The translations under genes and the position numbers were made by a program. The notes below the pieces were generated by a model. That model was given only the letters and a program-made list of their open reading frames with translations. It ran no database searches and was not told the DNA's origin. Source: Blasia pusilla (Eukaryota). From it: a DNA stretch of 64,000 nucleotides. The stretch covers positions 4,278,001 through 4,342,000 of the forward strand of contig CM114271.1 of assembly GCA_050084515.1 (NCBI GenBank), given 5' to 3'. Below, in pieces: positions 23,985-61,796 of this stretch (position 1 is its first letter; the number at the start of each line of letters is the position of its first letter).

Positions 23985-25139
23985 TCTTCTTCTTCTTCTT
24001 TCCTTCGATCGTGGGCCTCACTTCACCAAATCACACAACATTCCTTCTCCTCCTCCTCCTTTCCTTCCTTTTGTCGCATTTTTTCCATCCTAACTTTTGT
24101 CTATCTATCCTTCCTACTCTCTATCATCATCTTCTGCATAATCTCCTTTTCGTCTGTTGTTTGCTTTATCGACTCTGTCGTGCGCATACACATCGCTACA
24201 CAACATACATCGCTATCACTGAACACACACACAAACACACACGATCCCATGCTAACTCATGACATCCAAACAACGAGACAAGAAGTACCAAAATATCTCC
24301 AATAAAGTAAGATCTCACAATCTCTCTCTACACAATCTCACACCATAGCTCTCAAAGGTGTGCACTCTCTCTCATGTCAAACTAAACCCACTCTCCTAAT
24401 GAGAGGCTTGGGTTACACTCACAAGGCAAGGGACCATAGCTCCGTCGCCTCATGCCAAGAGGTTCAACAAAGAGAGAATGAGCTCTCAAGCTCTCTCTCT
24501 CCTTGGGATATATATCCCTCCCCTCTCCCAAGCTCTCTCCATGGTAACCTATTCTCCCAAGTCACCTCTTTGGCTCTTGACCTGATGTAGGAGGTCAAGG
24601 GCCACTTAACAAAAATAGAAAGTTGATCATATACTCAAAATGGTACTTACCTAAAATAGTAATTTCCTCAATATGGCTCCAAAGGAGCCAAAACGAAGGG
24701 GAAACCTGTTCTCTCACGTTTCCCCGGGCCCTAGCAGGTCATCCTCGACCTCCCAGGCCTGTCCTCCACTACTCTTGAAGACGCTCTACTAGATCTCACC
24801 GATGTATCCTAAAGGACGTGACAACTGTCGTGCGCATACACATTGCTAAACAACATACATCGCTATCACTGAACACACACACAAACACGTACGATCCCAT
24901 GCTAACTCATGGCATCCAAACAACGAGACAAGAAGTACCAAAATATCTCCAATCGCCCCCCTAGCTGGTGGTTAGGTCCCTCTAACTCCAGATAGCCATC
25001 TATCCCTACCTTCCATGACATACATCTCTCGGACACTAAGAGCAAGAAGGTCGGGTGCTCATGTGGCCTCATCGTTAGTCGCCTTCATGTAATCCATATC
25101 AAAGAAAAAGTCGGGATCGAAACCTACCTAGTATCTCCT

Positions 25140-28100
25140 CTATGTACATCTGGGACACATCCATCGTCCCCGAGGAACCCTAGTGAGAGGTGGCGTCAGA
25201 CATGCCATATGTCAACCTCTCGAACAACCATCACAGACTAGCATTGTGGCCGCACCACGGGCAGAACCACACAACATACAACGCAAGCCTGCAGGAATTA
25301 CTGCTAAGCTCGGATCCACTATACTATCAATGTTAGGAAGGTGACATGGTCCTTCCATACCATACCATCGCGTCCCTCCAACAAGAGAACACCGGATGGC
25401 AAAACGTCACACACTCTCAGGATAGTGCGCCCTGCAGTCACATCCAACGTCATCGTTGCCGTCTGCTGCAAGTAGACATAATCTCCCTGATGAAACCTCC
25501 AGATAGTTGGTCGATAACCACCACCCCGAATAGTCGCATACCTCAATGTATCTCGATGTTGCGCAATCGCCAAGTTCTCGAACGCCATGGGCATCATTCT
25601 CTGAAATAACTCAGCCCTCTGAGAACATGCTCGCACCCATACATCTGGGTCATCAAGGTCCAACACCTCACCCGCATCTCGACGAATGGCCGCATGTAAA
25701 TCTGGCTCTCGGCCATAAAGTAGCAAGTACGGTGAAAAAGACGCTAAGGATGCCTGCTTGCTGAATCTGTATCCCATCGCCAACCATGGCAACTGGAGGT
25801 CCCAATCTCCTAGGTGACCTCTCTGCAAGCCATACTTGTGTAAACCCCTCTTCACCGTCTGCACAACTCTCTCCGCTAATCCATCCGCCTCGGGATGATC
25901 TCACAAAGTCATGCAGTGGTCGATAAGCACTTGATCACACAAGGCTTGGAACTCACCTCGAAACTCGGTACCCTGGTCTGTCAACACCTCAGCCGGTGCG
26001 CCATAATGACTCAGCACTCTGTCAAGGAAGGCATAAGCTACTCCCTCACTCGCTTTGTCAGGCAATGCAACCAACTCGATCCACTTTGAGAAGTGCTCGA
26101 CCATCACCAACACATAACGACTGTGACGCTTTGTCAAAGGCAAAGGTCCTCCAAAATCCAAACTCCATCTATACCCTAAGCCCATGATCGGTAATGGATG
26201 CAACTGTGGAGTCGGAGCATTGAACGATGCTCGGACCCAATCACACACCATGCACCTGGCAACAAACTGCTGAACGTCAGTCTGCATGCCTCGCCACCAA
26301 TCGAATCTGGAGCAAGTCGACGTCCGCTTCACCCCAAAGTGACCCAACTCCTCGTGGGCATGCTGCACTAGTCGTGCTCTCTGCGAAGGATGCGGCACTA
26401 TGAGTACTCTGCCATCCTCCCAAACCCTCAAAACATGTCTCCCCTCCCAACGGAACCGTATGGCCCGCTGTAGGATCCGATCTCGCTCTCTAGCACCCAT
26501 AGTGCTCGCAACGCTGCCCGTACAAAGGTACTCCAAGACTACTCCATCATCATGAATATCTCGGCCACCTGTCGTCTCCTCACTGGCCTCGGGATCCAAG
26601 GACTCTCCATTAGACCTCACCATCGAAGTCTCCACACTCTGGCTCTCCATAGCAAACATGCCTAAATAGGCTGACGCGTGCCATCCTGGCACCGACTCCT
26701 CATCACTCTCTCCATGCCATCGAGCTCCAGTCGCATCTCGCTGACTCGGGCATGGGTTACGACTCAACCCATCTGCATCTTGGTTGAGCCTCCCAAGTTT
26801 ATGTACCACCTGAAAATCATACTCCTGCAACAACAGAGCCCATCTCGCAAGCTTCCCTATAAGCTTGTCGGACTCCATCAACCACTTCAGTGGTTGATGA
26901 TCAGTGATGATAGTAAAGGGGTTGCCGAATAAGTAACACCTGAAATGCGCGACAGCCCACACCGCAACCAAGCACTCACCCTCATATGAGCTGTACTTTG
27001 CCTATGCAGCGTTGTTCGAGCGGCTAGCGTAAGCCACCATGAACTCTCTACCCTCATCATCATGTTGGGTGAGCACCGCTCCAAGCCCCAACATGCTCCA
27101 ATTGTGTGCAACTGGAAAGGACGCCCCCTGATCGGTCTCCTCAAGATGGGCGCAGACATCAACCTGTCCTTGAGCAACTGAAATGCTTGCTCCTGCTCAT
27201 CCCCCCAGTGCCACTCGTGATCCACCTTGGTCAGAAAGGTCAGTGGCTTCGCAATCGAACTAAATCCCTTGATGTATCGCCGATAGAAGTTTGTCAATCC
27301 CATGAATGCGCGAACCCGGCTCACATCTGTAGGGCGTGGAATGCGTGAGATAGCGTCTACCTTCGTTTGCTGAACACCAAGGCCCCCTAGGTATATCGTA
27401 TGACCCAAGTACTCAATCTGGTCGTAGAAGAACTTGCACTTGCCTGGATGTAGCTTCAACCCATGTAATTGCAATCATGGAAACACCTCCTCTAGATGTC
27501 GCTCATGCTCCTCAACCGTGGCGCTAAAGACTACGATATCATCAATATAACACCTAGCAAAATCTAGACCAGCGAAGATCCTATCCATCACCCTCTGAAA
27601 CTCAGCCGTGGTGTTCTTTAACCCAAATAGAAAGAACCGCGACTGGTACAAACAATCCTTCCCGTGAGGATCGATGCCCCAAAATGTCGTCTTCACTTTG
27701 TCCTCCAATCGATAGGCGGTGATGGTATCGGCTCATAAATCCAATGAATCAAGACCTTTGCGTGACCAATCGCATCAAAGATCTCCTCAGGGGTGGGCAT
27801 GGCATACCTATTGGACTTCGTGTGTCGATTGATAGGTCGGTAATCCCCACACATCCGCCTATCCGTCCAGTTGCCATGCACATCCTTCTTGGCGGGCATG
27901 ACAGTGGAAGATGCAAACTCCCCATGCGACATCTCGACTAGTCCTGCTCTGACCAAGTCCTACCTCCTACTCTAAATCAGAGCCCTCTCCATATCACTGT
28001 ACCTGTAGGGTCGTCGGAAGATCGGCGTATCACTTGACAACTCAATGCGGATCCCCAGTCCCTTCAGCGTACCCAAATCCTCCATGCTAAACCCAAAGCA

Positions 28101-28190
28101 ACTCCTATAACTCCTGAGGAACTGATGTATTCGGCGCCGCTCTCCTCTTGTCAACTTAGGGCCCATATCTGGCTCCCAAGTCTCCATCCT
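25140..28190 (-). pseudogene. Element 1 RT-RNase H-integrase-PHD, frameshifted
   Basis: RRMCGDYRP, YIDD, TDHQPLKWL, HEELGH..CMVC, WSLDF..VLTDQG. C-terminal CMLC..CDGC..H..C..W.CPRC at ~25140-25283. Confidence 0.92.
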
Positions 28191-28233
28191 AACTACGGTA
28201 GGACTCTCCCGCGCGCGTATCGGTGGTTGCTAT

Positions 28234-29263
28234 TGTCGCGACCCTCATAACCAAACAACACCAAATAGGCGCCAAGCGAAACATAAGAACTCCAAGGAAC
28301 TCACGTTGCGAGGTTTGCGCTTTGGAGAGGCGTTTGGAAGAGTCTCTTGGAAAAGTCTAAGAGACGAAACGCGGAACAGAGTTGTGCATTTCATGCATTA
28401 GTGGTCGCGACCAGGAAACCTAGACCATACGCAGCCGAGACTTGAGGTGAGTTGAGTCTTGGGAGGTTGGTTGCCAAAGAGGCGAGAACCAGTTTGGAAC
28501 ACGACTAGCGTTTGAGAGAATCTGACTGTGTTTAGGACCATAACGTTGATCTCCAAGATGCGTTTGAGACAAATAAGGGCGCGTTGGAAAGCTGATCTTG
28601 AGACGCTTCCAACGCACCAAAGATCTTAGAAAACGCATAAGTACAGGCTGAGATATTGGCCGAAAACAATTGAGAGACCAATCGGGTTGAGGGCCAATTG
28701 GAGAGGCCCGGGTGTCTTTCCCTAAATGTAGGGGGCCCCCGGAGATCCCCAGAAGTACTAGTAAGGAAGGACCTTCTCCGAGATGTCTCGGGAAACGAAA
28801 CCCCACTTTGGGCGCCAAACGGCGTTTCAGAGGCACGGGATGGAACAGGAGTTTGGCGCGGAAACCCGAAAACCAAACCTGATCCAAGGGAGTGGACTTT
28901 GTATGCCACACTTGGATTCCAACCCGAGATTCACTTCGTGCGAGTCTTGGTGAGGAACTCATTGGATGTTCATCGGACAGTTGGAACCGCTAGGCGCGAA
29001 ACGCCGTTTCAGGTTCCTGAACCGACCAGAAAGTCTGTCCCAAGTCTTTTGAGATTTGCCCGTGTTGGAAACCGCAAAACTAGGAAGGTTGAGCTTGAAG
29101 AGAGTCCGAGACGAGAACTCGGAAAGTAATCCCGCTGATTGATCCAAGACCCGACTAACCGAAGTGCGTGTTTGGATGCAGATCAACGTTGAGAGCCTGA
29201 CCTACTGAACGCACGCTTCCGCAACAAACAAGATTAACGTTCAAGGAGAGTAGGCGCACGACA
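28234..29263. mobile_element. Nested ~1030-bp solo LTR inside element 1
   Basis: TGTCGCG...GCGCACGACA with 5-bp TSD GCTAT; absent from the equivalent linker of element 2. Confidence 0.85.
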
Positions 29264-29519
29264 GCTATGGTGCAACCCCGTCTCGAACAACAACACTCGG
29301 CCGCTCTCCTGCAGCCAACTGCAAACTCTGCTCTCCTCCACGTGCAGTGCCTGAAACCACGCTCGATGTTGTGGCTATCATCTCCTTGCGTACCTGCAAA
29401 ACATCCCAAGAAGTCTAAGGGTGTCTCTCCGGATCTCCTCGGGTCTCGCCCCCACCCACTGCCTCCACTGTCTCGGTAGGCATGGGGCTCACCAACGCAA
29501 CCGCTGTGATCTGTCGCGA

Positions 29520-30490
29520 TCTCATACGACGCTGCTCAGCCACTCCCAAGCTGAGGATCCATGTCAAGCAATTCAGGTCCATCGCCTGACCCAAGATATG
29601 GCATCGTGATGCCTCTTATATTGACGGTACTGGCGTCACCCCTGTGGGAAATCCCATCGCTTGCTCTCTCTCGTCGGCGTTGGGCTCAACTAACCGCTGA
29701 ACATGGTCATCCCAAACCAAGCCAGGACCGGCCTCCTTGTATGCATAGGAAGCGGGAAAACTCATGAACGTGGGCAAGGCTGACCGCCGCCTGCCTACCC
29801 TGTTGACCACAGTCAATGTTGGTCGATCATCGTGCCTCACGCTGTGATCGACGACTTGGATCCAGAATGGAATCCACTAAAAAATGGGAGGGGCGCTCCA
29901 CTCTCGCATACGCCCTTCGTAATACCGCATGGGGCACCAAGTTGGTCCACCATAGACGCGGGCGATGGGCTCTAGAACCTACACTCGCCGCATCCAAGAA
30001 CACTGTTGGGCCGATCCACGCACGCACTTGATGAGCACTCGTCACCACCCATGACCGGGAGTCTCCTAAGATCGGCACATTCTCCAGAATGTAGGATGGA
30101 GAATGAGACTGGTGCTCCTGTAACTACCGTAAGACCCTCAACATCTCCCAAAACAACCTGGACCGAGTGTCAACCAACCCGCTGCCTCGTCCAGCACTTG
30201 ATTGGCCGTGACATGGCCAACCGGCAATGACCAAATCAATGGTCCCTACCCGCTCTAACTCTTGCGCCCCCAACAACGAAATATCCCTCGGTAGGGAACT
30301 CTGATACCCCTGTATTGCGGAGGCAGACAATAAGTCGAGAAAACGTAGGCGTAACTACGCCACATGTCGTAGTGAGACACGCCTCGCAACATCATCACTC
30401 TCCACATACAGGTGCCGTTGTACTCGCACTCCTGCCTGCAATACAACAGCTAACCCGGTGCTAATCCTTCCAAAGAGATCTAACACTCAA
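29520..30490 (-). pseudogene. Element 1 DNMT3-like C5 cytosine methyltransferase domain
   Basis: Motifs VLDLFGRISTG (I), IDLVIAGWPCHGQS (IV), ILENV (VI), AHRPRLWWTN (VIII), EREQAMGFP (IX). Confidence 0.88.
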
Positions 30491-30839
30491 ATATCCTCCT
30501 CCGGGGTACACCACACAATGGGTGTGGTATCCAAGGGTGTCATCGTAGCACTCCCTGCTACCTCGGGTTCCTCAGACCCATCACGCTTCGGTGCAAACGC
30601 TTCGCTCCACGCGGTCTGCACGTGCTCATTTGCCAATCGTCGAAGCTCCTCAGTCGAGCCCCACATCGGCACCTCTCCTCCACGGAATGATGCACCTACC
30701 ATAACACTCCTCTCCATAGAAATGTCAGGAACGGGAGTATCCTCTGCATGGACATGTCCCTCAATCAAATCACTAGGCCAAGTGATGGCACTGCTAAATG
30801 CTGCTAAGATCGCCATCTCTCCTGGCCGTTGCTCGATCA

Positions 30840-33350
30840 CTGCACATGTGAATCGAACGGGTAATGAGCTAAGGCGCCCATCACCTCATTGCCATCCTGG
30901 TCTATAGGACGCTGACTCCTCCCAGTAATCCAGGGAAAACCCCATCGGGTATAACACTGCTCCACCAACCAAGGCGATAGTGACTCTGCATGAGTCACTA
31001 TCGCCTTGGCGCGCACCACGGACTCATCTGTAGGATGTCCCGGGTGAATCCTCACCACAACCTCTTGTCGGGTGATATACTGTGTGGTACTCGCTCCACC
31101 CAAGGATGTCTATATCCGGAATGGACAACGCTCCACATCGGCTCTCGTCAAGCCCAATCCTCTGAATGACGCTTTCCCCAACATCAAGGGTTGCGCTCTT
31201 GAATCCAACAAGACGCGCTACGGACTAAAAGCTCTACCTCCTGGACTCACCAAGTGGAAGACCTCTCCTCGGTTATCCAGCAACACAACACCAGGAGAAG
31301 CCATGGCACGCTCTATTGCGGGTCGAGCAGGCATCTCCGCCATTCTAGCAGCCCCAGCCTGCCATGAATCTGACGTGGACGGTCCGAGCATCCGCTCCAA
31401 GGGCAGGTCCATCACCTCCTCTACAATCACCTCTGAATGTGTTGTAGGAACTCCAACTCCACGCTCACATAGCGACGCGGCCAGCCAAAAAGCCTCAGCG
31501 GGCGTACCCCCCAACGTCATAACATCGGAAGCAGAAAACAAAGGAGTGCGGAACACAACGGTGGTCGCCCCCAACAATGTGCTTGACACATGCCCCTCCT
31601 AAGCATCAACAATATGAGTCATCGCACTCGCTTCTCCCATCGCCCTCCATGCCTGCACACCAGCATCACCAACTCTTAAGGAACTTTGATGAGGACCCAT
31701 CGATGGGGTCCTCATCGCTTCGGACAACGTGAAATACTGAGGAAGCCTAGTCTGTTTTCTGGCTTCCCCTCGTTGTGGATCCAACTTTGCGGTTGCTCCA
31801 CATGTCACAACTGCGGCGGACTCCATCTAGGCAAATCCGCACATCCAAACAGGATCCTCCAGATCTCTAGCTGCTCCATATGATGTCGATGCCACGGATC
31901 TGGCATCGGGTAACCTCAATGCCATAGCGGCAATCTGCTCCTATAGCTATTGTATCTGAGCAGCCATCCCAGCCTCACATCCGGCATCTCCCTCGGCGCG
32001 TCTAGGTGGTGGTACTCTACCTCCTCCATGGGCAGCTCCACCACCCTGTCGGGCAACTCCAGCTCCTCGTCCCCCAACGGGACCACCTGGTGCACAATCT
32101 CTAGTCCCACCCGGACCGGCTACTCGCTCTGGTGCCCTCTCTGGCCCTCGGTCCGAACGTAACTCATGATGTAAACTGAAACACCTGGCGTGTGTATGAC
32201 CATACCTCTGACAATAGTCACACTGATAACCTCCTGGTGCAGCACCATCTCCTCCTCCATGCTGAGGCATACGTCCATGACCCTGACGAGTGCAATGGCG
32301 CTGATGATGGGCTCCACCACATGACCAACAAGTAATAGTAGGCGGTTTCTGTTGAGTCGCATATGAAGGCGCAGGTCTCTGTGCCACGGGCTCCGAGTAT
32401 CCTACCTGAGCTCGTGGTGCCACAGTTGACCTATCTCAGAGTCCACGTTGCTGCATAGGTGGTGCAGCCAATCGCGACTGCTCTCGCCCAGAACCCATGG
32501 TGGCTACGCTCTCCTCCGCCATGTTGCGCTCAATATTCTCGGTGGTCCTAAAAACATCTCTCAACGTAGGTGAGGTGTTCATAAGAAGCACCCCCTCCCG
32601 CACCCATGGCCGCAGGGTCTGGTCCAGCATCACATACCATGACTGGATAGCCTGAGCCTCTGTCACTCCCTGAGTGACGTTGATCAACCGGCGCAAGCGA
32701 GTGTAAGCCTCACGTAAACTCTCATCCAGGCGCCTCTGGAAGTTGTGGATGCTCCGCAACTTTTCCGTCCATACCCCTTGGTAGCTCGCCCTCAACTCAC
32801 CAAAGAACTCAACCACGGAGTTGAACCTGGGACGAACCCGACTAGACGGTGCAACTACTCCAGTGCGAGTGACCCCTCCTAAAACATCACTAGTGGAAGA
32901 GGAAGTAGCCTCTCCTGACTCCTCCTCCTCGTGTGGGAATGGCTCCGTCCATGATTCATAGTGTGGGTCGTAGTAGAGTCGCCATGCCTCAATCTCCTGG
33001 GCATATCTGTGGGAAAACTGATGGTAATCGTCCATGGGTGCCCCCTCTAAATGCTGGAACATATCGTTCCACGTTGTAAACGGGTTGAACTCTCTAGAGT
33101 TCGTGGCCCACTGGGAACTGCACCAACTCCTAAACTCTGCTATGAAATCGTGCAACTCAATCGTACCTACTGCACCTGAAAACCTACGCAATCCTCTACC
33201 CCGGTCGTCCATCTCGTACGCCCAATTGGTAGGACCACTCAGAATATGTGGCGATGAGCTCACAAATTCCTCCACACCCTCCCCCTTGTCTAACGATGAC
33301 ACAGAAGGAGGTCGAGGTGGTCCTTGAAGTGAAGACCCTCGGAACCTCAC
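30840..33350 (-). pseudogene. Element 1 gag with two CCHC zinc knuckles, and aspartic protease
   Basis: Gag-like QRRLDESLREAYTRL; CWSCGGAHHQRHC and CDYCQRYGHTHARC; VLLDSRAQPLMLG near 31180-31215. Confidence 0.8.
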
Positions 33351-34324
33351 GCCACTCCGCGTAAAACCTCTAGAGCTACTCTCGAGTTCACCACCTCACC
33401 TCTCAAAGTCCCGAGCGGACGCCGTGATGACCCTCGTGCCTTTCTCACCCGATTACTCTTGCCTCGCGAGTAATCCCTCAATCACTCATGCCAAACATGC
33501 GGCACTCGATCTACACTCGCCCTCCCCGAGACATGTAACGTACGGCAATAAGCGGCGTGGTGCGGAAAATCGACCAGGCTATCATCTCATCCACAACCTA
33601 CCCTCAACTCCGGACATCCCACACAGGTCTATGTCCCCTAAATCACATACATAAATGTTGCTCTCAGCATCCACACACCCAATATCCCCAAATAAAATAC
33701 CCAGATCCAAGAATCCCTCACACGTGCAGGGTAAGGGACCAGAATGGGTAACCTGAACACATGTCAATGTCGCTCCTCAGCAACTGCGAAACTGCGACCC
33801 CAACTCAGTCATGGAGACAACTCCTCCAATCAGCAAGTCATACTCCTCCCGTATTGACGTTGCTCAAAACTCCTCGATAGGCAGTGCGGTTCAGCGAACG
33901 GGGCGGTGTTGCAGCAAAGACGGAGGCGGCTCGAACGGCACCGCCCTCGATGATGGGATTCGGCACTCGGCGGCATACCCTCCTCAATCAACAATAAACC
34001 CACACTCTGCTCCACAATGCTGGAGCGGCTCCGCGATGAAGACGGTGCGGTGCGGCCACCAGTGGCACGGTGTGGCAATCGGCGGCGCGTTGCGGCTACG
34101 GGCGTCACGGCACGGTACCCAATCGTCGTTGAGCGGCTACCAATCACAACATAGCAGAAGGAAATCAAAACTCAAACACTATAACATGAGGTCATATGCC
34201 ATCACAGGTTGATGACGGTGGCGGCGAAAACAAAGTACGTGATGGCGACGCAAGTCCAAGAATCAACGAACGTAATGGAAGACCCTCCACTCCGTAACGG
34301 CGGCAATGGCAACCAAGGGTGGAC

Positions 34325-34515
34325 AACGGACGGTGGACCATTGACGGTGACGGTGACGGTTGACCGTTGATGATGACGCACGAACGGTGACGGTGACGGT
34401 TGATCGTTGACCATGACGGTTGATCGTTGACTGTGACGGTTGACCATCGACAGTGAAAGTTGGCCATTGACGGTTGAAGGTTGACGGTTGACGGTGACTA
34501 TGACGGCGACGGTCG
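34325..34515. repeat. Low-complexity GACGGT(TGA) tandem array in the element 1 leader
   Basis: Repeated gacggt/gacggttga units. Confidence 0.8.
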
Positions 34516-37500
34516 CCGCCGGTGTGGCGGCTGGTTTAGGGTTTGCATAATTTAACCCTAAAAATTGCCTAGCAATGGTAGTTTTTCAATATTGACCATA
34601 ACTTTTTGCTCGTAACTCCAAATTGAGCATTGTTTGTTGCACAGCGTGCACAGCTTCACGATCTACGCTAACATCAAAAAATAATTGGAATCGGACATTC
34701 CAGTAAAAATTGGAGGGGACTGTCGTAAAGCCCAATGTCTCTTTCTTCTACCCAACATTCGGCAGGGCTTCCGCGCTTATTCCTCCCAAAAAAAATGTAA
34801 AACCTATAAAAATGCAAATGAGCAAGCGACATGATGCTCCCAAAAGCACTGGCATGGGGCAACCCGCCCCCATACTCAATCCCTATCAGAAATTGGGCAG
34901 CGCTTTCGCGCGCCACTCTTCCACACGAAAAATCGACAAATGCAATGAACAATCCAAGCAACCCTTGCTCCGATGAGCACTCCCATGAGCCGTTGAACGG
35001 GGAACACGGTCCCCAACCTGCAAAAACAGCGAGTGACCAGCGAGCTTCCCCATGAAGCTCTCTCACTCTCTCATTCTCGCATTCTCTCTTTCTCTCATTA
35101 TCTCATTCTCTCTTTGTAAAATAAGATCCAATCTCTCTCTACATAATTTCACACCATAGCTCTCAAAGGTGTGCATTCTCTCTCATGTCAAACCAAACCC
35201 ACTCTCCAAATGAGAGGCTTGGGTTACACTCACAAGGCAAGGGACCATAGCTCCGCCGCCTCATGCCAAGAGGTTCAACAAAGAGAGAATGAGCTCTCAA
35301 GCTCTCTCTCTCCTTGGGATATATATCCCTCCCCTCTCCCAAGCTCTCTCCATGATAACCTATTCTCCCAAGTCACCTCTTTGGCTCTTGACCTGATGTA
35401 GGAGGTCAAGGGCCACTTACCAAAAATAGAAAGTTGATCATATACTCAAAATGGTACTTACCTAAAATATTAAGTTCCTCAATATGGCTCCAAATGAGCC
35501 AAAACGAAGGGGAAACCTGCTCTCTCACGTTTCTCGCGGCCTAAGCAGGTCATCCTCAACCTCCTAGGCCTATCCTCCACTATTCTTGAAGACGCTCTAC
35601 TAGATCTCACCGATCTATCCTAAAGGACGTGACAACTCAACCCTCATCCTCACCCGTTTGCTTATTTCGGTTCCTCCACTGAGGGACCGCCTCTTTGCGT
35701 GGATGGCTATATTAGACTATTTGGTGGATCCGTAATCTACCAATATTGTGACGCATGAGGGCAAGTGTTTCTGGCAAACAAAGAGTTCCATTCTCGCTCC
35801 CAGAGTTGTGCCTTACATACACCACCGTCCCTTGAATTTTGAGTAGTTTGACTTTCCTCCCCAAACGGATTGTCCAACACTTTTGTGAAAGTCATTCGCA
35901 CGATCTCAAGCTGGACTCTGGAGTTTTATAGAGGTGGTGCGTTCACTCCATCCCAAGCTTTCCTGTGGATTTGATGATTGTATTCCATTTCTTATGTTTG
36001 AGCTTATTGCACCCATCCCATTGTGGGCACTCTAAATGTTTCAATATCTAGTGTCTTGAATGTCATTTGGAAGCAGTTTATGGCACTGCACAACCTCTTC
36101 CATCTCTTACATATTCCCAAACGTCAGACTTAGGGTTGTATTGTAGTGCACATATCTTGGATTATTTGTTGGGAGTTTAGATCATAGCAAGTCTTTTTCA
36201 GCCAATATGACATGCTTCTAGCCAAGTCTATCCAAGTCTATCCAAGGGTCTTTTACCTTTCTTGCCTCACCCTTATCACTTTAAGTGGTTGCGCCCCTTC
36301 TCTCCTAAGGTTAGTCTCAAGGTGCATGCATATCTTTACTAACTTTAGTCTATGGCACGTTCCTTTCTAGTCTTGTGACTATCTGGTCTAGGTTGTGACT
36401 TTGGCACGTCGCATTTTAATCTTCACAATGGATTTCCCTTTCAACACCAAGTCGGATTCGCCTCCATCTCTACGATAGTTGCTTTGAGATGCTTTTACGC
36501 ATCGTCTTGGTTCTCAATCGACTATCAGTCTTCATTTGACAATAAGGGTATCTCAATAGATATTTCCCATGGAAGATCCAATTTGGAAGGGTAAGGTGCT
36601 TCTTTTGTTGTAATTTCTCCCAAATGTGAATAGATAATCACCTTCAATAGCGAGATTGTGTCTAATGTCATGAGATTCATGGAAAACACCCCTCTTTTGA
36701 AAAATCCACATGGTGAATACCATGTTAGTCTGCTAAAGATACTGGACTTAGAAAAGTTGGTTGCGGATGTTCAAAAAGGTTTGACTTCAAGCATTGTTGG
36801 TATTGGCCTTGATTAAGGAACATACCCTCCTTGTTCTCCATCCCTCTTTCTACAATTATCATGGAATCTCGAGACATTCCCATGGCATGGGTATTGGATT
36901 GACATATTACGTAAGGAAACGCTAGATCTTCTCTAAGACATGTCTTGAATTCCTACAAATGAAACATGAGTCATCTGGTTGGTATTGCCTCTCAAATGGT
37001 TGGTTATAAGGAGAAAGACCACCTAAAATTTCTCTCTGTGGATTGAGATAATCTGGCTCATGCATTGGCTCCAAACTTGCTAAAGGATAAGAAAACAATG
37101 GATTGTGGTTTGAACATGTGATTCAAGATATACCATGGGAGAAAATTCAATTTTCCAATCTCAAAAATCTGAAAATAATATGTATTAGACCTAATGGCAC
37201 AAAGTATATGCTTTGATGTCACATCTACTTTCAAAATGGTTGGTAAAGTTGCACTTGCAGCAGCAACAAACAACTCAAGTTGAACTTGTGTGTCTTGTAT
37301 TGACTTCTAAGTCTCAGATGGTAGCGCAAAAGCAACATAGTCAGTAGATCAGCCGTAGCAAGATGCAGGGAGAGACACTTATCGACGTTGGCTGGTTCTT
37401 TCTCTCTAGAGCAACATCTAGTTGTGAGTATGAGCACATCAAAATTATTTCCATCTCTACCTTGCGTTGATACATGCCATGATACCATTATCGTTTCAGT

Positions 37501-43309: not shown

Positions 43310-45569
43310 AGACCGGATTCTAAATCCGTAACTAATAAAGGTTGCTTGCGGCAGCTCGCCGCGAAGTGGCGATGTTTCTCAACGTCATATCACTAGTCCC
43401 TACCGGAGCTGTGTCCTGTGGTGATGGCCGAATGTCTCCCGGCCTAGTACTATGGACGGGAGGTCGCGGTGATGAGTTTTGTGTGGCGTCGCTAGAATTT
43501 CTGCGCCAAAGTTTTGGGAGCAGAAACTGTCCAGTCTTGCCACCCTAACAAATATCCAACCGAACCTATCCATACGATATCATCACTCAAATTCGGAGGT
43601 CCCCGGGAGCCCTAGTTATGGTGAATCGCCGTTTGAAGAAACGAAAACTATTTATCAGCACGGCCATTTCGCAGGGACGGGCGAAAGAAAATTAATTAAT
43701 TTGAATTCTTCTATATTTATTAAACATACTCGCATGGACTGAAGTATCGTTTCTTCCAAAGTGGCCCCATTAACCAGTTTTTTTTCTTCTCGGATTGTGG
43801 TCGCATGAATGATGTAAAGGTAACCTCCATGGCCATCTTTTCTGATGACGTTCGACAAGATGCATCGCCCCCAAACTAGTAAAAGTGGTCGGTTTGCCTT
43901 TCGGGTTGTGGAAATTTGCTAGGGTCACTACATTTCATGCGCCCAAAACTTTTGGGCGCAAAAGAGAAGTGGCCTCGCGCCCTCCCCATGTGGCAAGGAC
44001 TTTGAAAAAGCGGGTTGCTGGTTGTCAAGAATCCGCTCGCCTTCCACCATTTCCATTATCTGCAATCCTTCCGAGAGTGATGATCTCGTAGAGTGACAGG
44101 CGAGTCGCGAGCATATTTGAAAATTTATGATTTCCCATTGTAGCACATTTCAATCCGAGCGACCCAATCTCAAATTCGTGAAGGTGTGGAATTTGTGGAG
44201 GTGGATTTCTGCCATCGCTGATCTATGCACAATACTTTTTTCTAGCCACATGTTGCAACGTATTGATTTGCTGCAGCAGGGCATTACAACCTATCGTGCT
44301 TGAGCTTGTGTTTTTAGATAAAATTTCCTTGTTCCTGTTGGGTTATAGGCAAGTATAATGTCGTTGCTGGATTATCCTTGCGTTGGTTGCGAACAAAGAG
44401 TTCCATTCTCTCTTCCACCCAATTATTCGAGTCTCCCTCTTCTTTCTATCTTTCGGTATCTAGATCTCGATCCCTGTCCAAAATCTTCTATCAATCAGGA
44501 TGAATCTACATGAAGAGAGCGAGCGCGCTCTCGATCAGTCCCCACAGACATATGCATACAGCAACCGCATCCCGCACTAAAGCGCCAATTATGTTCTTTT
44601 TCCCCTCCTCCACCTCCTCTTTCCTCCTCTTTCGTCCTCAGATCTTTTCTTCTTCTTCTTCTTTCCTTCGATCGTGGGCCTCACTTCGCCAAATTACACA
44701 ACATCCCTCCTCCTCCTCCTTTCCTTCGATTCGTTGCACTTTCTTCGTCATCTCATTTCTGTCTGTCTTGACTTCCGTCCGTCTGTCCTTCCTACTCTTT
44801 GTCATCCTCCCCTCCACAATCGCGTTTTCGTGCGGTCGTTGCCCTATCGGCTCGACCCTCATCCTCACCTCGTTTGCTTGTTTCCGTTCCTCCACGGAGG
44901 GATTGCTACATTAGACCGTGTGGTGGATCCGTAACTTACCAACAATGTGACGTAGGAGGACAAGCGTTTCTTGCGAATAAAGTTCCATTCTCGCTCCCAG
45001 AGTTGTGTCTTACATACACCGCAGTCCCTCGAATTCTGAGTAGTTCGACTTTCCTCCCCGCACCGATTGTCCCCCACTTCTTTGAAACTCATTCACACAT
45101 TCCCAAGCTGGCTTGTGGATTGTTACATGGGTGGTGCGTTCACTCCATCCCGAGCTTGTCTGCGGATTTGATGATTATATTCCATTTTCTATGTATGAGT
45201 TGATTGCGCCCGTTACGGGCACTCTGAACGCTTCAATATATAGTGTCTTGAATGTCACTAGGAAGCAGTTTACCATCTCTTGCAAATACCCAAGCGTCAT
45301 ACTTAGGGTTTTAGGGTTTTATTGTAGTGCACACATCTTGGATTATTTGCCGGGAGTTCAGCTCGTAGCAATTCTCCTTCAGCCGATATGACATGGTTCT
45401 AGTGGGTTGGTATGAAGTGGCATTTTTGTAGAATAAGGAGTTTTGGAGAATTGGAGGATCATAAATAGAAGCGGGATATCCGATAAACACATCCAAGAAC
45501 TATAGTCTTGAATCAACGATAGCTTCTATAGCTTTTAGGACTATACTATATTTTTGAATTTGCTCCTAT

Positions 45570-46610: not shown

Positions 46611-47629
46611 TTAGACGAAGTCATTTTGGTCTTTTAGGATTTTCTTCCGAAAATGGCAACTCCTTATATTCCTCAGGAGTCGGACTCATACTCGAATTGG
46701 AGTGGGTAGGCCCTCAAAGTCAAGGAGGGATTCTTTGGGAATACTAATATCTCTTCACGATCATTCCCTCATGATTTTTGCTTTCTTGGTGCGTTTCATC
46801 CCATATGTCGTGCGCATACATATCGCTACACAACATACATCGCTGGTCACATCTACACCACACAACACCAATCTTCCCCACACACGGGTCAATCCACACA
46901 TGTACAAAAATCAACTTATACATATACATGGAGATCACACAACAAAAATAAAGAGTAGTAAAACTAGCACACCCGGCCTAGAACTCCACTCCTCAATCTA
47001 CATCGGCATATCGAGCCTGCGCTATCAAGAAATCCGGACGCTAGCACCCTAGTCCTATCTCACACACATACAAGAGAGGTGCTCCAACGACCCAACATGA
47101 GAAAGATGGCTAAGGAAAGCCATCCTCCTCTCTTATATAGGGTTGGGAAGAGCCAAAAGCCTCTTCCCCTAAAAATAACCATCCCCTTGGTAACCTCCGC
47201 GCACAGGTTACCAAGGGCGGGTGACCTGGTCAACAAATCACCCAGTTGTGGAAGACCTCAACAGGAAAGTTTTCAGAAACAACGTTCCTGACACAATGGA
47301 CAGATCCTCAACCTCATTCGACACCGTGGGACAAAGTTACACTCAAGATAGTCCGTTGGCTCCTACGCCCTACCCACGATAGATCTCGGCCTATCGGCGA
47401 TTCAAATGTGACAGCTGTCGTGCGCATACATATCGCTGCACAACATACATCGTTGGTCACATCTATACCACACAACACCAATCTCCCCCACACACGGGTC
47501 AATCCACACATATAAAAAAATAAACTTATAAATATACATGGAGATCACACAACCGCCCCCCTAGTTGGCAGTTGGATCCCCCCAACTCCAGATAGAAAAT
47601 ATCACATCTCTCTGACATGACCTACTACC

Positions 47630-50600
47630 GTATACACATCTCGGACACATCCATCATCATGTGGGAACTACATCAAGAGGGGGGTTCAGACATGACATAT
47701 GCCACCCTCGAGAACAACCATCACATACCAACATGGTGGCTACACCCCTCGCAGATCCGTACAACATACACCTCAAGCCTGCAGGTACCACTGCCCAGCT
47801 CAGATCCATAGTCCCATTTACGTTTGGAAGATAACATGGCGCACAATTGCGCATATGATCCTTCCAAACCATACAATCCCGTCCCTCCAACATGAGGACT
47901 CTGGTCAGTAATACCTCACGCACATAGGATCGTGCGCCCTACAGTGATATCTAGCATCGTGGATGCCGCCTGCTGTAAATACACGTAATCTCCAGGATGA
48001 AACCTCATAATCCCTGGATGATAACCTCCTCCATAAATAGTCGTGTACCTCTGTGTATCTCTATGTTGAGCAATAGCTAAGTTCTCACAGGCCATAGGCA
48101 TAACTCTACGAAAAATCTCCGCCCTCTGAGAACACGCTTGTACCCACACAACTAGATCATCAAGATCTAACACCTCCGCCATATCACGTCAAATAGCTGC
48201 AAGTAAATCTGGCTCTCTCCCAAAGAGCAAAAATTATGGTGAAAATAACGCCAAGGATGCCTGCCGACTAAAGCGATAATCCATAGCCAACCATGTCAAG
48301 TGTAGGTCCTACTCCCTCAACTGTCCTCGCTGCAAGCCATACTTACGCAATCCTCTCTTCATTGTCTGTACTACTCTCTCCGCCAACCCATCCGCCTCAG
48401 GATGATATCTGGACGTGGTACAGTGATCTATTAGCGCCTGATCACACAAGGCCTGAAACTCTCCCCTAAACTCGATACCCTGGTCAGTCAACACCTCCGT
48501 CGATGCACCAAAGTGACTAAGCACACGATCTAGAAACGCATAAGTTGTTCCCTTGCTCACCTTGTCCGGTAGTGCCACCAACTCTATCCACTTGGAGAAA
48601 TGCTCCACCATGACCAACACGTACATGTGATGACAGCCCGTCAATGGCAAAGGTCCCGCAAAGTCTAAACTCCACCGATAATCTAAACCCATAATCGGAA
48701 AAGGATATAACTACAAAGTGGGAGCATTGAAGGATGCTTGCACTGTGTCACATACCATACATATGGCCACAAACTGTTGTACCCCAGTATGCATGTCGCG
48801 CCACCAATACTAAATCTGGAGTAAGTTGTAAGTACGCTTCACTCCAAAATGTCCCAACTCCTCATGGGCATGTCGCACTACACGTGCTCGCTCAGAAGGA
48901 TGAGGTACCACTCCTATCCTACCATCTCCCCATACCCGCAAAATGTGAATCCCCTCCCACCTGAACCTCCTGGCTCGCTGTAGGATCCGATCCCGCTCCC
49001 TAGCACTCACTATGCTTGCTATGAGGCCACTGTGCAAGAACTCCATAACCTCCACGTCGTCATGGATATCTCGACCACCTGTTGCCTCCTCACTGACCTC
49101 CAGATCCAAAGACTCATCATCCAACCCCACCATTGGAGTCATCACCTGTGCTGACCTACCATAGTCAACCAAAAAAGATAGACATATGCATGCCAACCGA
49201 GCACCATCTCCTCATCACTCTCTCCCTGCCATCGAGCTCCTGTATGGTCTCTCTGACTCGGATATGGGTTACGACTCAACCCATCCGCATCCTGGTTCAC
49301 CCGGCCTGGCTTATGAACCACCTCAAACTCATACTCTTGTAGTAATAGAGCCCACCTGGCAAGCTTTCCCATAAGCTTCTCGGACTCCATCAACCACCTC
49401 AACGGCTGATGATCAATGATAAGTGTGAAAGGGTTGCCGAATAAATAGCACCTGAAATGTGCCACGGCCCACACTACAGCCAAGCACTCTCCCTCATAGG
49501 AGCTGTACTTTGCCTCTGCAATGTTGTGTGATCGGCTCGCGTAAGCCACAACGAACTCCCTCTCCTCGTCATCCCTGTGAGTAAGCACTGCTCCTAGACC
49601 CAACATGCTCCAATCCGTATGTAACTAGAATGGGCGACCCCTAACCAGTCTCTATAAAATGGATGAGGACGTTAACCTGTCCTTGAGCTCTTGAATTGCT
49701 CACTCCTGATCATCTCCCCACAACCAAACCTGATCAAGTCTTGTCAACAAGGTCAAAGACTTTGCGATCGCACTAAAACCCTTGACATACCGTCCATAGA
49801 AGTCTGCTAGTCCAAGAAACGCTCGGACTCAACTCACATTTGTAGGGCATGGAATCTACGCAATAGCCTCCACCTTTGTCTGATGAACGCCTAACCCACT
49901 CCAATATATGGTGTGTCCCAAGTACTCAATCAGATCCTAAGAGAATCTTCACTTGCCTGGATGTAACTTCAGTCCATGTAACTGCAATTGCCGAAACAAC
50001 TCCTCCAGTGTCGCTCATGCTCCTCAACCGTGGAACTGAAGATAAGAATGTCATCTATGTAACATCGTACAAAATCCAAGCCAGCCAAAATCCTATCCAT
50101 CACTCTCTAAAACTCCGCAGGCGCGTTCTTTAACCCAAATGGTAAGAACCGCCACTGATACAAGCAATCTCTCCCGAACCGATCTATCCCCCAGAATGTT
50201 GTCTTCACCCTGTCCTCCAACTTGATAGGAAGCTGATGATAGCGAGCACATAGATCTAAAGTATTGAAGATCTTTGGATGCCCTACCGCATCAAAGATCT
50301 CCTCAGGAGTAGGCATGGCATACCGATCTGACCTGGTTTGTTGGTTGATAAGACCGTAATCTCCACACATCCGTCTATCCATCCAATTGCCATACATATC
50401 CTTCTTTGCCGGCATGACTGTGGCAGATGCATACTTCCCATGTGATAACTCCACAAGTCCTCCCTCCAACAAGTCCTGACTCTTGCTCTGAATCAAGGCT
50501 CGCTCCATATGAGAATACCTATGGGGTCGACGAAAGATCGGCGTATCACTAGCCAACTCAATCCGTTTCCCGAGACCCTTCAACGTACCCAAGTCTCTCA

Positions 50601-53600
50601 TACTGAAGGCAAAACAACTGACATGCCCTCTCAGAAACCTATGTACTTGCCGTTGCTCTCCTCCCATCAACTTGAGACCTATCACAGGCTCCCAAGTCTC
50701 CATCGTGATCTCACTCGGAGAGGACGCAACCTCCGGCTTTGGTTGCTTTGTAGCAACCCTAGCCACCTTCGCAATAGCCACTCTATTGTGATCTCCTACA
50801 CCATGATCCACATCCAAAAAATGAACATGTGCTACTCTCGCCGCCTTCGCACTCTCTGCTTGAATGACGTCCAAGGAAGTCCATGGGTGCCTATCTCTCC
50901 TCGTCTCGCCCCCAACCAATGCATGTACAGACCCTATAGGAAATGGTCCAACTTGTGGATGTAATGATATGGATGACACTCACATCCGTCTCTGCTCAAC
51001 CATACCTAGGCTGACTATCCATGTGAGACAGTTGAGGTCCATGGCCTGCCCCAACACCTGTCTCCGAGATGCCTCAATCATACCTCGCACCGCCGTAGTA
51101 CCCGTAGCAAACCCCATGGCGCGCTCACGCTCATCTGCTGTAGGCTCCTCTAATGCTCGGGTCATCTCATCCCAAATCATGTCTGGCCCTCCCTGACAAA
51201 AGGTATGGGATGCTGGGAAGCTCACCAACATTGGTAAGGCTACCCTAAACTCCCCCACCCTATTGGCCATCACCAACGGTGGTCTATCATCCCGCGTCAC
51301 CACCTGAGATCGACGCCCTGAGCCCAAAATAGCATCCACTATGAGATGTGGTGCAATCGAGACTCCATCGTATGCTCGACTCAGTACCTCTGATGGTATT
51401 ACGTTCGTCCACCACAGTCGTGGATGATGGGCATATGATCCAACTCTCGCTGCATCTAGCAACACGACAGGTCCCAACCAAGACCTCACCTGATGCACAC
51501 TCGTCATCACACGTGCACGAGTGTCTCCCAACAACGACACGTTCTCCAAAATGTACGTTGGAGAACATGTCTGACGCTCATGCAAGTGTCCTACTACTTG
51601 AAGCATCTCCCAAAACATCCCTAACCTCGGATCCTGCAATCCAAATCCTCGGCCAGCTTATGAATGACCCTCACATGGCCATCCAGCAATCACCAAATGA
51701 ATGGTGCCAACTCTATCTAGATCCAGCGCCCCCACGTCGGCGGATAGTGTATGTTGATATCCCCGTACTCTAGAGACCGAAAACAACTCAGGATATCTCT
51801 GGACCAATCTCGCTACGTGATGTAATGACACTCGCCGCGCAGTCTCATCTCTCTCCACATAAAGGTTCTAATGCACCCGTATGCCCGCCTGCAATACTAC
51901 AACCAATCTAGTGCTAATCCCTCCAAAGAGATCTAACACCCTAACACCCTCCTCTAGACACTGCCACACAATGGGTGTGATATCCAGTGGGGTCAACGTC
52001 TCCACTCTAGGGGCCCGATCATCACGTGACTCTTGCTGCTCCGAGATAAAGGCATGACTTCACGCCTGCCTCACAAGGTCGTGGGCACCCCTCTGTAGCT
52101 CTCGAGTCGTACTCCACAATGGTGAAGAGGTCTTGCCAACATGGGAAGAGACACCTGCCATGGTTTGTCTCTCTGTGGGACTATCCGCTACTGGGACATC
52201 CTCTGCATGTGCGTTCCCCTCCAACAACTCTCCTGGCCAACTAACACTACCTGTGAAAGCTGCCAACGTGGTCACAGACTCGTCTCGTGATCGACCACCT
52301 CGTCCCGCAAACTGCATGGGTAACTGACTCATCCGCCCGTCACTTGACCGACACCCTGGCTGATAAGCAATGATCTCCTCCCATAAGTCAAGGATGAATC
52401 TTAGGGGATATAACACTGTATTCCCCCACCAACACATCGTACGACTCAGATGGTGTCGTAATCGCACGTGTGCGCACCATAGCACTATCCGTCGCATGCT
52501 CTAGCTGGACTCTGACAACTATCTCCTATCGAGTCATATATTGTATGGGTGACGTGCCCCAAATCGAGGTCTCTATCTGGAAGGGACAAGGCTCAATGTC
52601 GGCCTTTTGTAACCCCAACGCTAAACACACCGCCTTCCCTAACATCAAGGGTTGCGCTCCCAAATCAAGTAGGGCGCGTTGCAGGTGGTAGACTCTCCCC
52701 GTTGGACTAACCAAGAAAAATACTCCAGGTCGGTTATCCAGTAACACTACTCCATGAGTCACCACTGCTCGCTCTATGGCCGGTCGAGCTGGCATATCTA
52801 CCAACTTCGCCGCCGCCGTATGCCATGACTATGTGGAGAACGTCCCAAGCACCGGCTCTGAGGGCAAGTCCACCACCTCCTCAACTACCTCTGAACAAGA
52901 AGCAGTCACCCCTCCACGCTCACACAACGTGGCGGCCAACCAAAACACCTCAGCTGGTCCAACTCCCAACGTCGCCAACTCTATGGCAGAAAATAGGGGA
53001 GTCTGACTCACTCTATGGCCACCTCCAACACTATGGTCGACATTGACTCCACTCGAGCCGGCATAGGAGTTGTCACTCCAACTCCTCGTGACGTCCACGT
53101 GGGTGCTTGAGTTGTAGGCACCGCTGGTCGTCGAGGCACCATCGATGGTGTGTGTAGTGCCTCGGACAATGTGAATGACTGTGGAACCCTAGCTTGGCAT
53201 CCATCGGTCCCCTCCGGTGGGTCAATCTCAACTCCACCTCTTGATGGCTTGGTGCCTCTCGTAGCAAACCGAGTCACCACTACAGCCGCCTCAACCTGAG
53301 CTGCACTACACATAAACCCCATACTGGCGAGATCCTCACCCGAGTCAGGGTAAGAGGTAGAAGCTGGAGCCACACTAGCTGCTCGTGGCTCCTTTCCTTC
53401 CCTGAGCTGCATCATCGTCATGGCAGCAATTCTCTGCTCCAACTGATTGATGCGTGAGAGAAGTGCCGACTTTGGTGCTCCTGCTCCATCTCCTCAGGCT
53501 GGTGGTGGTCCTCTACCACCACGTCCACGAAGAATTCCCCGAACTCCTCCAGGACGACCGTCCCCAAGCCCTCGGCCTGCCTCTTGACATGCCTCTCAAC

Positions 53601-53685
53601 GAACGTCATAACATCTATCCCTAGTGTGACCATATCTGTGGCAATAGTCACACTGGTATTGTGGTGGGCTCTGGGGTCTCACTTC
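47630..53685 (-). pseudogene. Element 2 gag C-terminus-protease-DNMT-RT-RNase H-integrase-PHD, decayed
   Basis: Colinear with element 1: ALLDLGAQPLMLG, RRMCGDY, LPFGLKNAP, YASRS..YSSYEGECLA, WSLDFAG, LVCDGCSRGWHMSCLNPPL. Confidence 0.9.
50980..51945 (-). pseudogene. Element 2 DNMT3-like C5 cytosine methyltransferase domain
   Basis: RVLDLFGGIST, LVIAGWPCEGHS, YILENV, LDAARVGSYAHHPRLWWTN, ERERAMGF, SRRQVLGQAM. Confidence 0.9.
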
Positions 53686-53889
53686 TACGGAAGAGATCCA
53701 TCACGTACGACAAAGTATAGGGTTTTTTAATTCAATTTCGGGGAAGACTTATAAGGTTTTGTGGAAGAACTTAAGGGTATTTTTAATATAGGAAAACACT
53801 TATAACAAACATAGGGATTTATTAATTCTTTTTCTGTACATGGAAGATGTTCAAGGAAGTAAGGGGGAGATTAAGAAGATAGGAGACCA

Positions 53890-55415: not shown

Positions 55416-55904
55416 TTATGCTAAATTTGAATTGGCAAGGTATGTGGCTTTGGCTACATTATGTTTTGTATAACTTTAGTTGAAAATTCCCTTGTTTGAA
55501 AGGGAGAGTAGTATGTTTTATTTTTGTATATTTTCACAACACACTACTCACCCGTCGATCAAACAGATCATTCTAACTTGGGATGCGGAGGCGGGCTTTG
55601 GAGTCTCGGACGTGGGCATTGGAGCTCTACACTCTCTTGCGCGGAAAAAATTCCTCGTTTGTAGCTCTTGCGCGACAAAAATTTTTCTGTTTCTCTCGTC
55701 TTTCCGGTTGGTTGTTGCCTTCTTGAAGGTGCTCGGTGCCAGTACTCGCGTCGTTGGCCACCGTTCAACCTACGCTCTCCGGGTGCACTCCAAGTAAGAA
55801 TCTCTGGATCTGTCTATGTTTCTCTCTTTGTCTGTCTGATAACATGGATTGCAAGAATTACATTCGGAGTCGCATGGCCCTTTTCGGGTCCCTTGTACAT
55901 TGGT

Positions 55905-55908
<4 letters not shown>

Positions 55909-55969
<61 letters not shown>
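55909..55969. repeat. (CT)n microsatellite
   Basis: Direct read. Confidence 0.98.

Positions 55970-55971
<2 letters not shown>

Positions 55972-60625: not shown

Positions 60626-60627
<2 letters not shown>
55970..60627 (+). mobile_element. Near full-length decayed LINE (APE endonuclease + RT)
   Basis: SIVDYIVV, QVGFRQAQGCVDHIF, DLKKAYDLVWR, GVAQG, MFA/DD, C-terminal CALC..H motif; many frameshifts. Confidence 0.88.

Positions 60628-60717
<90 letters not shown>
60628..60717. repeat. (CT)n microsatellite
   Basis: Direct read. Confidence 0.98.

Positions 60718-60720
<3 letters not shown>

Positions 60721-61560: not shown

Positions 61561-61796
<236 letters not shown>

Follow-up and report, generated by a model that had tools for sequence, protein, structure and literature searches.

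A transposon that carries the type of enzyme with which hosts silence transposons represents a rare inversion of the arms race, and the print record of such DNA methyltransferase (DNMT) retrotransposons, as far as the main texts compared here go, is confined to one streptophyte alga and to dinoflagellates. Among Gypsy-type elements, a DNMT has been reported for Klebsormidium nitens only, in the element KnitGypsy-Dnmt3, and its acquisition is worded as having occurred "in the K. nitens lineage" (PMC5890265). The legend of Fig. 4c in that paper describes the Klebsormidium element as having repeats as in DIRS and domains as in Gypsy, and selection on its DNMT domain was reported as <0.2 (PMC5890265). 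Two later papers cite "streptophytes (Gypsy-DNMT3)" in their main text without naming new hosts. Here, we describe two elements, referred to as elements or copies 1 and 2, in a stretch of 64,000 nucleotides of Blasia pusilla DNA (the window; contig CM114271.1 of assembly GCA_050084515.1, positions 4,278,001 to 4,342,000). They are very probably two old, inactivated Ty3/gypsy-type insertions of the "Gypsy-DNMT3" lineage first described in K. nitens, since they share with it the DNMT clade, the order CCHC knuckle-protease-DNMT, and repeats arranged as A-coding-B-A-B, where A is a long and B a short direct repeat.

The literature compared comprised PMC5890265, PMC12344493, 10.1101/363937, 10.64898/2026.05.21.726589 and PMC9033089. 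No report of this family in land plants or chlorophytes was found in it, although supplements and figures may hold such data, and the words liverwort and moss are absent from the text of PMC5890265. In the window, this lineage is seen to extend to genomes that have liverworts and mosses as their nearest relatives. A first-pass annotation of the window, made from the letters alone, had noted that DNMT-carrying retrotransposons were reported by de Mendoza et al. in 2018, as that paper indeed states (PMC5890265), and had suggested that the host or lineage might be new. The host does look new for print, but the family is the known one rather than an independent invention.

A domain of the C5 cytosine methyltransferase type lies on the minus strand of both elements (Table 1). 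One open reading frame (ORF) piece of copy 1 (30127-30354) matches PF00145 with 34.2 bits (E 2.5e-8), and the remaining two DNMT pieces of that copy, searched singly, gave no Pfam match. The domain of copy 2 matches with 23.4 bits; the curated cut-off is 22 bits, and the intact relative P0153 scores 49.5 bits. When copy 1 was translated by reading through, with X placed at the breaks, LDLFGRIS, IAGWPCHGQS and ILENV appeared in this order, followed by RAHRPRLWWTN, EPNADEREQAMGF and LGQAMDLN, and copy 2 shows VLDLFGG, AGWPCEGHS, ENV, ERERAMGF and LGQAMDLN. What we take to be motifs I, IV (PC), VI (ENV), VIII, IX and X of C5 methyltransferases (the first three strings of copy 1 being motifs I, IV and VI) are all present in linear order, and the catalytic columns PC and ENV are conserved across an alignment of 17 family members. 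In the databases, 134 relatives reach E <= 1e-3, and, judging from these comparisons, the domain match is not due to chance. Searching the ESM Atlas with one unbroken 225-residue ORF added nothing, as it returned generic DNA cytosine methyltransferase clusters only, mostly phage-labelled. The methyltransferase that the first-pass annotation had placed in both elements is thus borne out by matches above the Pfam cut-off; its quoted strings DLVIAGWPC and ERERAMGF were recovered, with their DNMT3A counterparts visible in the alignment. The domain is present in both copies but broken in both, by stops and, in copy 1, also by a frameshift near 29841.

The same annotation had called the domain DNMT3-like and not permuted as in plant DRM, a description with which both profile and fold comparisons agree. 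In the single-sequence phmmer search of solved structures (PDB), DNMT3A ranked first (E 3e-5), with DRM2 far behind (0.014). A family profile built from 17 members matched DNMT3A at 1.6e-23 (DNMT3A/B/C at about 1e-23), followed by DRM at 2.7e-14 (tobacco and Arabidopsis DRM spanning 1e-14 to 1e-12), M.HhaI at 4.5e-9 and DNMT2 at 5.9e-8; no DNMT1 chain was found among its 57 matches. DNMT3A aligned to the profile as three collinear blocks covering motif I, motifs IV-VIII and motifs IX-X. Of the DRM chains, only the C-terminal part aligned, to the N-terminal half of the profile, which is expected from the known circular permutation of DRM; the permuted order (VI-X before I-V) was not found in the window domain. 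When the copy 2 domain was modelled with AlphaFold, X standing for each stop (predicted local distance difference test score, pLDDT, 74.8; predicted template modelling score, pTM, 0.79), the Foldseek matches listed for the model were all DNMT3A/B/C chains (E 3e-15 to 3e-12), with a target-normalised template modelling score of about 0.7 for catalytic-domain chains. Compared with the catalytic domain of animal DNMT3A and DNMT3B, its best profile and fold match, the window domain has the same motif order (I-IV-VI-VIII-IX-X) and aligns at PC, ENV and the RxR-containing motif. Identity is, however, only about 20%, around 70 extra residues separate motifs VIII and IX, and the domain is set in a retrotransposon polyprotein. 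A protease, rather than the PWWP or ADD reader domains, lies upstream of it, and Pfam found neither reader in P0001, P0125, P0131, P0141, P0150 or P0153. Plant DRM2 likewise belongs to the DNMT3-related group and is the second-best class by profile, but it is circularly permuted whereas the window domain is linear. Assignment of the domain to the DNMT3 class, rather than to DRM or bacterial enzymes, is supported by profile and predicted-fold rankings.

The domain sits within the polyprotein of a Ty3/gypsy-type element. Tblastn with uninterrupted relatives showed that both copies are collinear as gag, protease, DNMT, reverse transcriptase (RT), RNase H, integrase and PHD finger, and that this holds against Marchantia P0125/P0131, P0141 and P0150. 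By Pfam, the order is CCHC, protease, DNMT in P0141, DNMT, RT, RNase H, integrase, PHD in P0150, and DNMT, RT, RNase H in Marchantia P0131, while P0315 is a single ORF of 2811 residues running from protease through DNMT, RT, RNase H and integrase to PHD. Window pieces match RVT_1, RT_RNaseH, Integrase_H2C2, rve and PHD, so that the Ty3/gypsy order of protease, RT, RNase H and DDE integrase is found in sequence; the window protease and gag pieces gave no Pfam match and were placed by alignment, the CCHC knuckles of the element 1 gag being read in the ORF translation. This layout agrees with the position between protease and RT proposed from the letters. It might be supposed that the domain is a fragment or pseudogene of a host DNMT3, or a nested insertion, that never formed part of the polyprotein, given that both copies are rich in stops and frame changes and that frame continuity in copy 1 is not directly readable. 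However, the domain occupies the same place in two copies whose DNA is just 64% identical along it, and the copy 2 frame that contains it continues into RT, running for 797 codons from upstream of the DNMT, with four stops inside. Moreover, relatives hold the domain inside single ORFs of 1190 to 2811 residues, and the PWWP/ADD domains of host enzymes were not found by Pfam in the window domain or its relatives. We regard an origin outside the polyprotein as hardly credible, and the in-frame relatives, including P0315 and Marchantia P0131, refute it.

In both window elements and in locus L030 (8023-8226), the integrase ends in a PHD finger, not a chromodomain. The fingers of elements 1 and 2 share 72% of their residues, and their nearest relatives among solved structures are those of CHD4, PHF12, PHF21A, KAT6A, ATXR5, KDM5A (PHD1), UHRF1 and AIRE. 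Most of these fingers read unmethylated H3K4, as does the ADD domain of host DNMT3. The arrangement resembles that of chromoviruses, the Ty3/gypsy elements with a chromodomain after the integrase, in that the C-terminus of the integrase carries a fused chromatin-reader module, but the reader is of a different kind.

The ends of the elements are as informative as their coding parts. Both begin with TGTCAC and finish with GACA, giving TG...CA termini, and both are flanked by 4-bp target-site duplications (TSDs); the empty site reads GAGC where the TSD of element 1 has GAGT. There are no two identical terminal repeats. Instead, the 5' end bears the long repeat only, and the short repeat stands on both sides of the 3' long repeat. 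In element 1, a G-rich tract, CTAGGGGGGCG, at 24954-24964 immediately precedes B1, and two nucleotides separate B1 from A2, so that the internal short-long junction equals the two termini abutted with two bases in between. The A-coding-B-A-B layout also occurs in metagenome loci L066, L069/L076 and L051/L054. A reading of 24303-24826 and 35117-35637 as canonical long terminal repeats was considered and then abandoned in view of the short repeats and the empty site. A search for a primer-binding site and polypurine tract identified no tRNA-type primer site. The arrangement A1-coding-B1-A2-B2, with an internal B1-A2 junction equal to abutted termini, is that of Ngaro/PAT-like elements (DIRS order). 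These, however, use a tyrosine recombinase, whereas the window elements have a DDE integrase (rve), 4-bp TSDs and TG...CA ends; Pfam found no phage-integrase (tyrosine recombinase) match in them.

Relatives of the domain are numerous. Word-based searches returned 134 near-length relatives as well as 30 longer ones, and those that bear names come from Marchantia polymorpha, M. paleacea, Riccia, Calypogeia and Sphagnum (best identity 62-66%). An exhaustive profile search gave 523 cluster representatives at E <= 1e-30; the best 150 of these all fell below 1e-69, and polyproteins with lengths of 1000-3456 residues are frequent among them. Among 312 DNMT-bearing proteins, 45 show protease-DNMT or DNMT-RT, 90 show RT-RNase H-DNMT-integrase-PHD, 176 show the domain alone and one is ambiguous, and both orders were confirmed on examples by Pfam. 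In a FastTree of 168 near-complete domains, one branch (support 97) separates the two orders with a single change of state, and a quick IQ-TREE search of 45 rows agrees with this split; supports are FastTree local values and SH-aLRT values, respectively, from trees without a host-gene outgroup. The IQ-TREE places both window copies with Marchantia, Calypogeia and Sphagnum sequences in a clade of 13 rows (support 100), at the base of which they branch as a close match to none. Look-ups of 30 proteins yielded host names for 3, so that host ranges are thinly sampled. K. nitens GAQ93235.1 (P0165) and a protein of Closterium sp. NIES-68, both of the order CCHC-protease-DNMT, fall on the window side, and Scenedesmus sp. 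PABB004 is the sole named host on the other.

These trees bear on whether the bryophyte-type elements acquired their DNMT3 domain independently of the Klebsormidium elements, by convergence of the kind seen between dinoflagellate DIRS and Klebsormidium Gypsy elements. Repeated DNMT capture by retrotransposons is documented in the literature, the wording of PMC5890265 confines the acquisition to the K. nitens lineage, and the window domain shares little identity with the Klebsormidium clade, about 31-36% for that part of the tree. Nonetheless, the K. nitens and Closterium proteins nest among protease-DNMT-type sequences on one side of the branch with support 97, and the CCHC-protease-DNMT order and the unusual split direct repeats are common to both groups. 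No host DNMT3 separates the clades, although the tree contained none. Independent acquisition is improbable on this evidence, and the window elements are decayed further members of the known lineage in a bryophyte-type host. Like KnitGypsy-Dnmt3, they carry a non-permuted DNMT3-type domain, under purifying selection, inside the Gag-Pol of a Gypsy-type element. They differ in that both window copies are dead, that the host, to judge by the nearest relatives, appears to be a land plant of bryophyte grade, and that protein identity with members of the Klebsormidium clade amounts to only about one-third. The PHD finger, the TSD and the TG...CA ends are unmentioned for KnitGypsy-Dnmt3 in the main text, figures and supplements excepted. 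The nearest relatives are Marchantia polymorpha gene models (such as Mp_4g09160, Mp_8g17980 and MARPO_0091s0058) and sequences of Calypogeia fissa and Sphagnum spp., which have the same polyprotein order and 55-66% DNMT identity. They are labelled hypothetical or "DNA (cytosine-5-)-methyltransferase" rather than transposon genes, and they appear unpublished. Labelling of this kind, and the filing of one copy in a bacterial metagenome-assembled genome, can both inflate DNMT gene counts in comparative studies. Given the many gene models of Marchantia polymorpha among the relatives, this species offers a tractable model for the genetics of the domain's putative activity.

Both window copies are dead and make no enzyme. 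In-frame stops interrupt the DNMT of copy 1 at 30489-30487 (the 5' edge of the domain), 30357-30355, 30126-24 and 29618-16, in addition to the single frameshift mentioned above, and the change of FGG to FGR in motif I replaces a glycine of the motif for binding S-adenosylmethionine (SAM). Copy 2 has internal stops at 51870-68 and 51660-58 and one stop at each edge (bounding 50982-80). The residue after the catalytic PC is altered in both, from PCQ to PCH in copy 1 and to PCE in copy 2, and in neither copy is the domain still open and translatable with its SAM-binding and catalytic residues unchanged. An alignment of about 1670 codons contains 34 stops, of which copy 1 has 13 and copy 2 has 21, plus several frame changes. 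The gag of element 2 lacks its first ~320 codons, and 53700-62954 is occupied by about 9 kb of unrelated repeats; no gag N-terminus was found in the region 53700-62955, nor any Pfam match in its six ORFs. Within the interior of this element, a tandem array of ~350-bp units (53876-55299), three microsatellites (55910-55969, 60628-60717 and 61565-61796) and a 1.2-kb segment (59381-60621) that is 83% identical to 8127-9364 were also observed. The protease of element 1 has a frameshift near 30981. Both copies change frame at nearly the same point, and a programmed frameshift between protease and DNMT was considered; the breaks, however, lie about 15 nt apart within the conserved protease C-terminus and run in opposite directions, which we take for decay. 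CpG-driven decay was likewise considered: 17 of the 34 stops differ by a single step from the codon found in the other copy, with no clear C-to-T excess, and the observed/expected CpG ratio is 0.34-0.36 in the long repeats (24304-24823 and 35117-35634), 0.81 in the interior of copy 1 and 0.69 in the whole window. No conclusion was drawn from these values.

Despite this decay, the two copies diverged while the DNMT domain was under purifying selection. They are about 76% identical in DNA over RT-integrase in the window self-comparison, and their pN/pS over the domain is 0.38 in frame (379 codons) as against 0.95 and 1.50 in the shifted frames. The protease is similar at 0.40, and constraint on the DNMT is weaker than on RT (0.25) or integrase (0.18). 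Ka/Ks for the domain is ~0.20, a rough value because Ks is saturated (1.5).

In its intact form, the element would have encoded one Gag-Pol polyprotein, gag(CCHC)-protease-DNMT3-like-RT-RNase H-DDE integrase-PHD, bounded by split direct repeats, and would have inserted with a 4-bp target duplication and TG...CA ends. Active copies would make the methyltransferase as part of the polyprotein, and the enzyme could then methylate cytosines, most likely in CG, on the element's own new cDNA or fresh insertion, whereby a new copy would enter the genome already marked. We put forward this self-methylation tentatively, as possible rather than probable; it is the most parsimonious account of why a catalytic centre within Pol is conserved. 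Slightly less likely is that active elements keep the domain for another role, be it RNA methylation, the in-trans methylation of host DNA, or a purely structural or DNA-binding part in the pre-integration complex. In favour of such a role, the yeast assay described below detected no methylation, and the discussion of PMC5890265 itself lists alternatives of this kind. In one subclade, moreover, the domain closes ORF1 before a conserved stop, which would yield Gag-like amounts, far above those of RT. A structural role, however, would not need the PC, ENV and SAM-binding motifs, which are conserved over very wide divergence, and DNMT3-type dinoflagellate retro-DNMTs methylate CG de novo in yeast (PMC5890265).

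Several points weigh against reading the two elements as Gypsy-DNMT3 insertions whose enzyme acted on their own DNA. The sole assay of this lineage, in yeast, detected no methylation by the Klebsormidium domain, although its authors call the assay inconclusive (PMC5890265). Both window copies are broken and hence silent on present-day function, and metagenome copies are mostly degenerate, with the ORF around the DNMT shorter than 850 codons in 79 of 80 loci. Tree supports come from a quick search and from FastTree only, the DNMT3 class is backed by profile and fold ranking rather than by a tree containing host DNMT families, and the saturation of Ks blunts the estimate of selection.

Table 1. 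Coordinates of the two elements and associated sites in the window (PR, protease; RH, RNase H; INT, integrase)
Feature	Element	Position	Strand	Evidence or remark
Whole element, A1-gag-PR-DNMT-RT-RH-INT-PHD-B1-A2-B2	1	24176..35634	-	Empty site aligned to both flanks
TSD, GAGT in element orientation	1	24172..24175 and 35635-35638		Empty-site alignment
Long repeat A1, 5' end	1	35117..35634	-	95% identical to 24303-24826
Gag with two CCHC-type knuckles	1	31947..33197	-	tblastn to Marchantia P0125 residues 9-354, 46% identity
Aspartic protease	1	30870..31556	-	tblastn to P0141 residues 714-867 (Asp_protease_2)
DNMT3-like domain	1	29523..30486	-	PF00145 and read-through motifs
Extra ~1.1 kb between DNMT and RT	1	28250..29400	-	Approximate boundaries; absent from element 2
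RT-to-integrase block	1	25418..28229	-	Pfam and tblastn
RT	1	28229-27480	-	RVT_1
RNase H	1	27474-26640	-	RT_RNaseH
Integrase zinc domain	1	26389-26243	-	Integrase_H2C2
Integrase rve core	1	26173-25907	-	rve
C-terminal PHD finger	1	25146..25349	-	tblastn to P0150 residues 1448-1513 (PHD)
Short repeat B1, internal	1	24826..24953	-	96% identical to 24175-24303
Long repeat A2	1	24304..24823	-	Self-comparison, junction read
Short repeat B2, 3' end	1	24176..24303	-	Self-comparison, junction read
Paralogous unfilled target site	1	44648..45097	.	Junction 44851-44853 aligns both flanks
Whole element	2	46806..63324	-	Same A-coding-B-A-B layout
TSD, TATG	2	46802-46805 and 63325-63328		
PR-to-PHD coding block	2	47636..53011	-	tblastn and Pfam
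Protease	2	53011-52424	-	
DNMT3-like domain	2	50983..51948	-	One frame; PF00145
RT	2	50745-49643	-	
RNase H	2	49642-48807	-	
Integrase	2	48806-47925	-	rve 57.5 bits
PHD finger	2	47839-47636	-	PHD 26.9 bits against a cut-off of 24

Rather than being a peculiarity of the Klebsormidium lineage, Gypsy-DNMT3 may further be an old and very large green-lineage clade that combines split direct repeats with a DNMT3-type domain and with a DDE integrase bearing a PHD finger, and that was kept into land plants, including Marchantia, Calypogeia and Sphagnum. Within it, the DNMT would have moved once, between the order protease-DNMT-RT with streptophyte hosts and the order RT-RNase H-DNMT-integrase with Scenedesmus, and one subclade would carry the enzyme in ORF1, followed by a conserved UAG-CAG-UUA stop at which readthrough is probable. 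We consider this broader picture somewhat likelier to be right than wrong; nothing on it was found in print in the main texts compared.

The sister group (P0169, P0178, P0173, P0196 and P0239, the last being a Scenedesmus sp. PABB004 "pol") is larger, with the DNMT between RNase H and integrase. The ten members of the P0255 cluster all have 2487 residues and come from ten contigs, suggesting that the family was active recently. In a sister subclade, a single TAG in frame, with the context GAT TAG CAG TTA, stands between gag-protease-DNMT and RT-RNase H-integrase-PHD (L030, 5083-5085; L032, 2081-2083), and L030 comprises 2417 codons with no other stop; these two DNA examples are close relatives, 93% identical in amino acids after the stop. 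TAG-CAR-YYA is the tobamovirus-type readthrough context. In this clade, eight of nine proteins terminate at the homologous site, G-x-G-x-x-S-[ST]-[DN], and other subclades (P0023/P0041/P0040) likewise end at one common column. P0025, a family member of 455 residues listed under the name "DNA cytosine methyltransferase" in a Candidatus Obscuribacterales metagenome-assembled genome, is nearly identical to the L030/L032 type, so its contig is probably of eukaryotic origin and was assigned to a bacterial genome in binning.

The surroundings of element 1 contain a unit of more than 6 kb that occurs twice and is up to 96% identical between its copies (17869-24175 plus 35636-36221, and 39088-45402). 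Element 1 interrupts the first copy, and the second is uninterrupted. This unit holds another Gypsy-type RT/integrase fragment on the plus strand (17752-18600; 38227-39813).

Transcription was considered with three RNA raw-read runs and one DNA run carrying the same species label. About 600-680 RNA reads aligned per run; because nearly all were 95-99% alike (e.g. 629/639), they stem from related copies or another strain and not from the copy itself. Over integrase/PHD and the 3' repeats the RNA depth was 15-30, compared with 0.5-7 over the DNMT, and the first mate lay nearly always on the plus strand. We take these reads as no more than a hint of transcription in relatives. For the extra ~1.1 kb of element 1, no match was found elsewhere in the window or in the 80 loci. 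Within it, reads from each of the three RNA runs begin at 28801-28802 and continue past 28846 into ~105 unlike bases, and since the reads run on in this way, the 45-base piece 28801-28846 occurs in a transcribed locus elsewhere.

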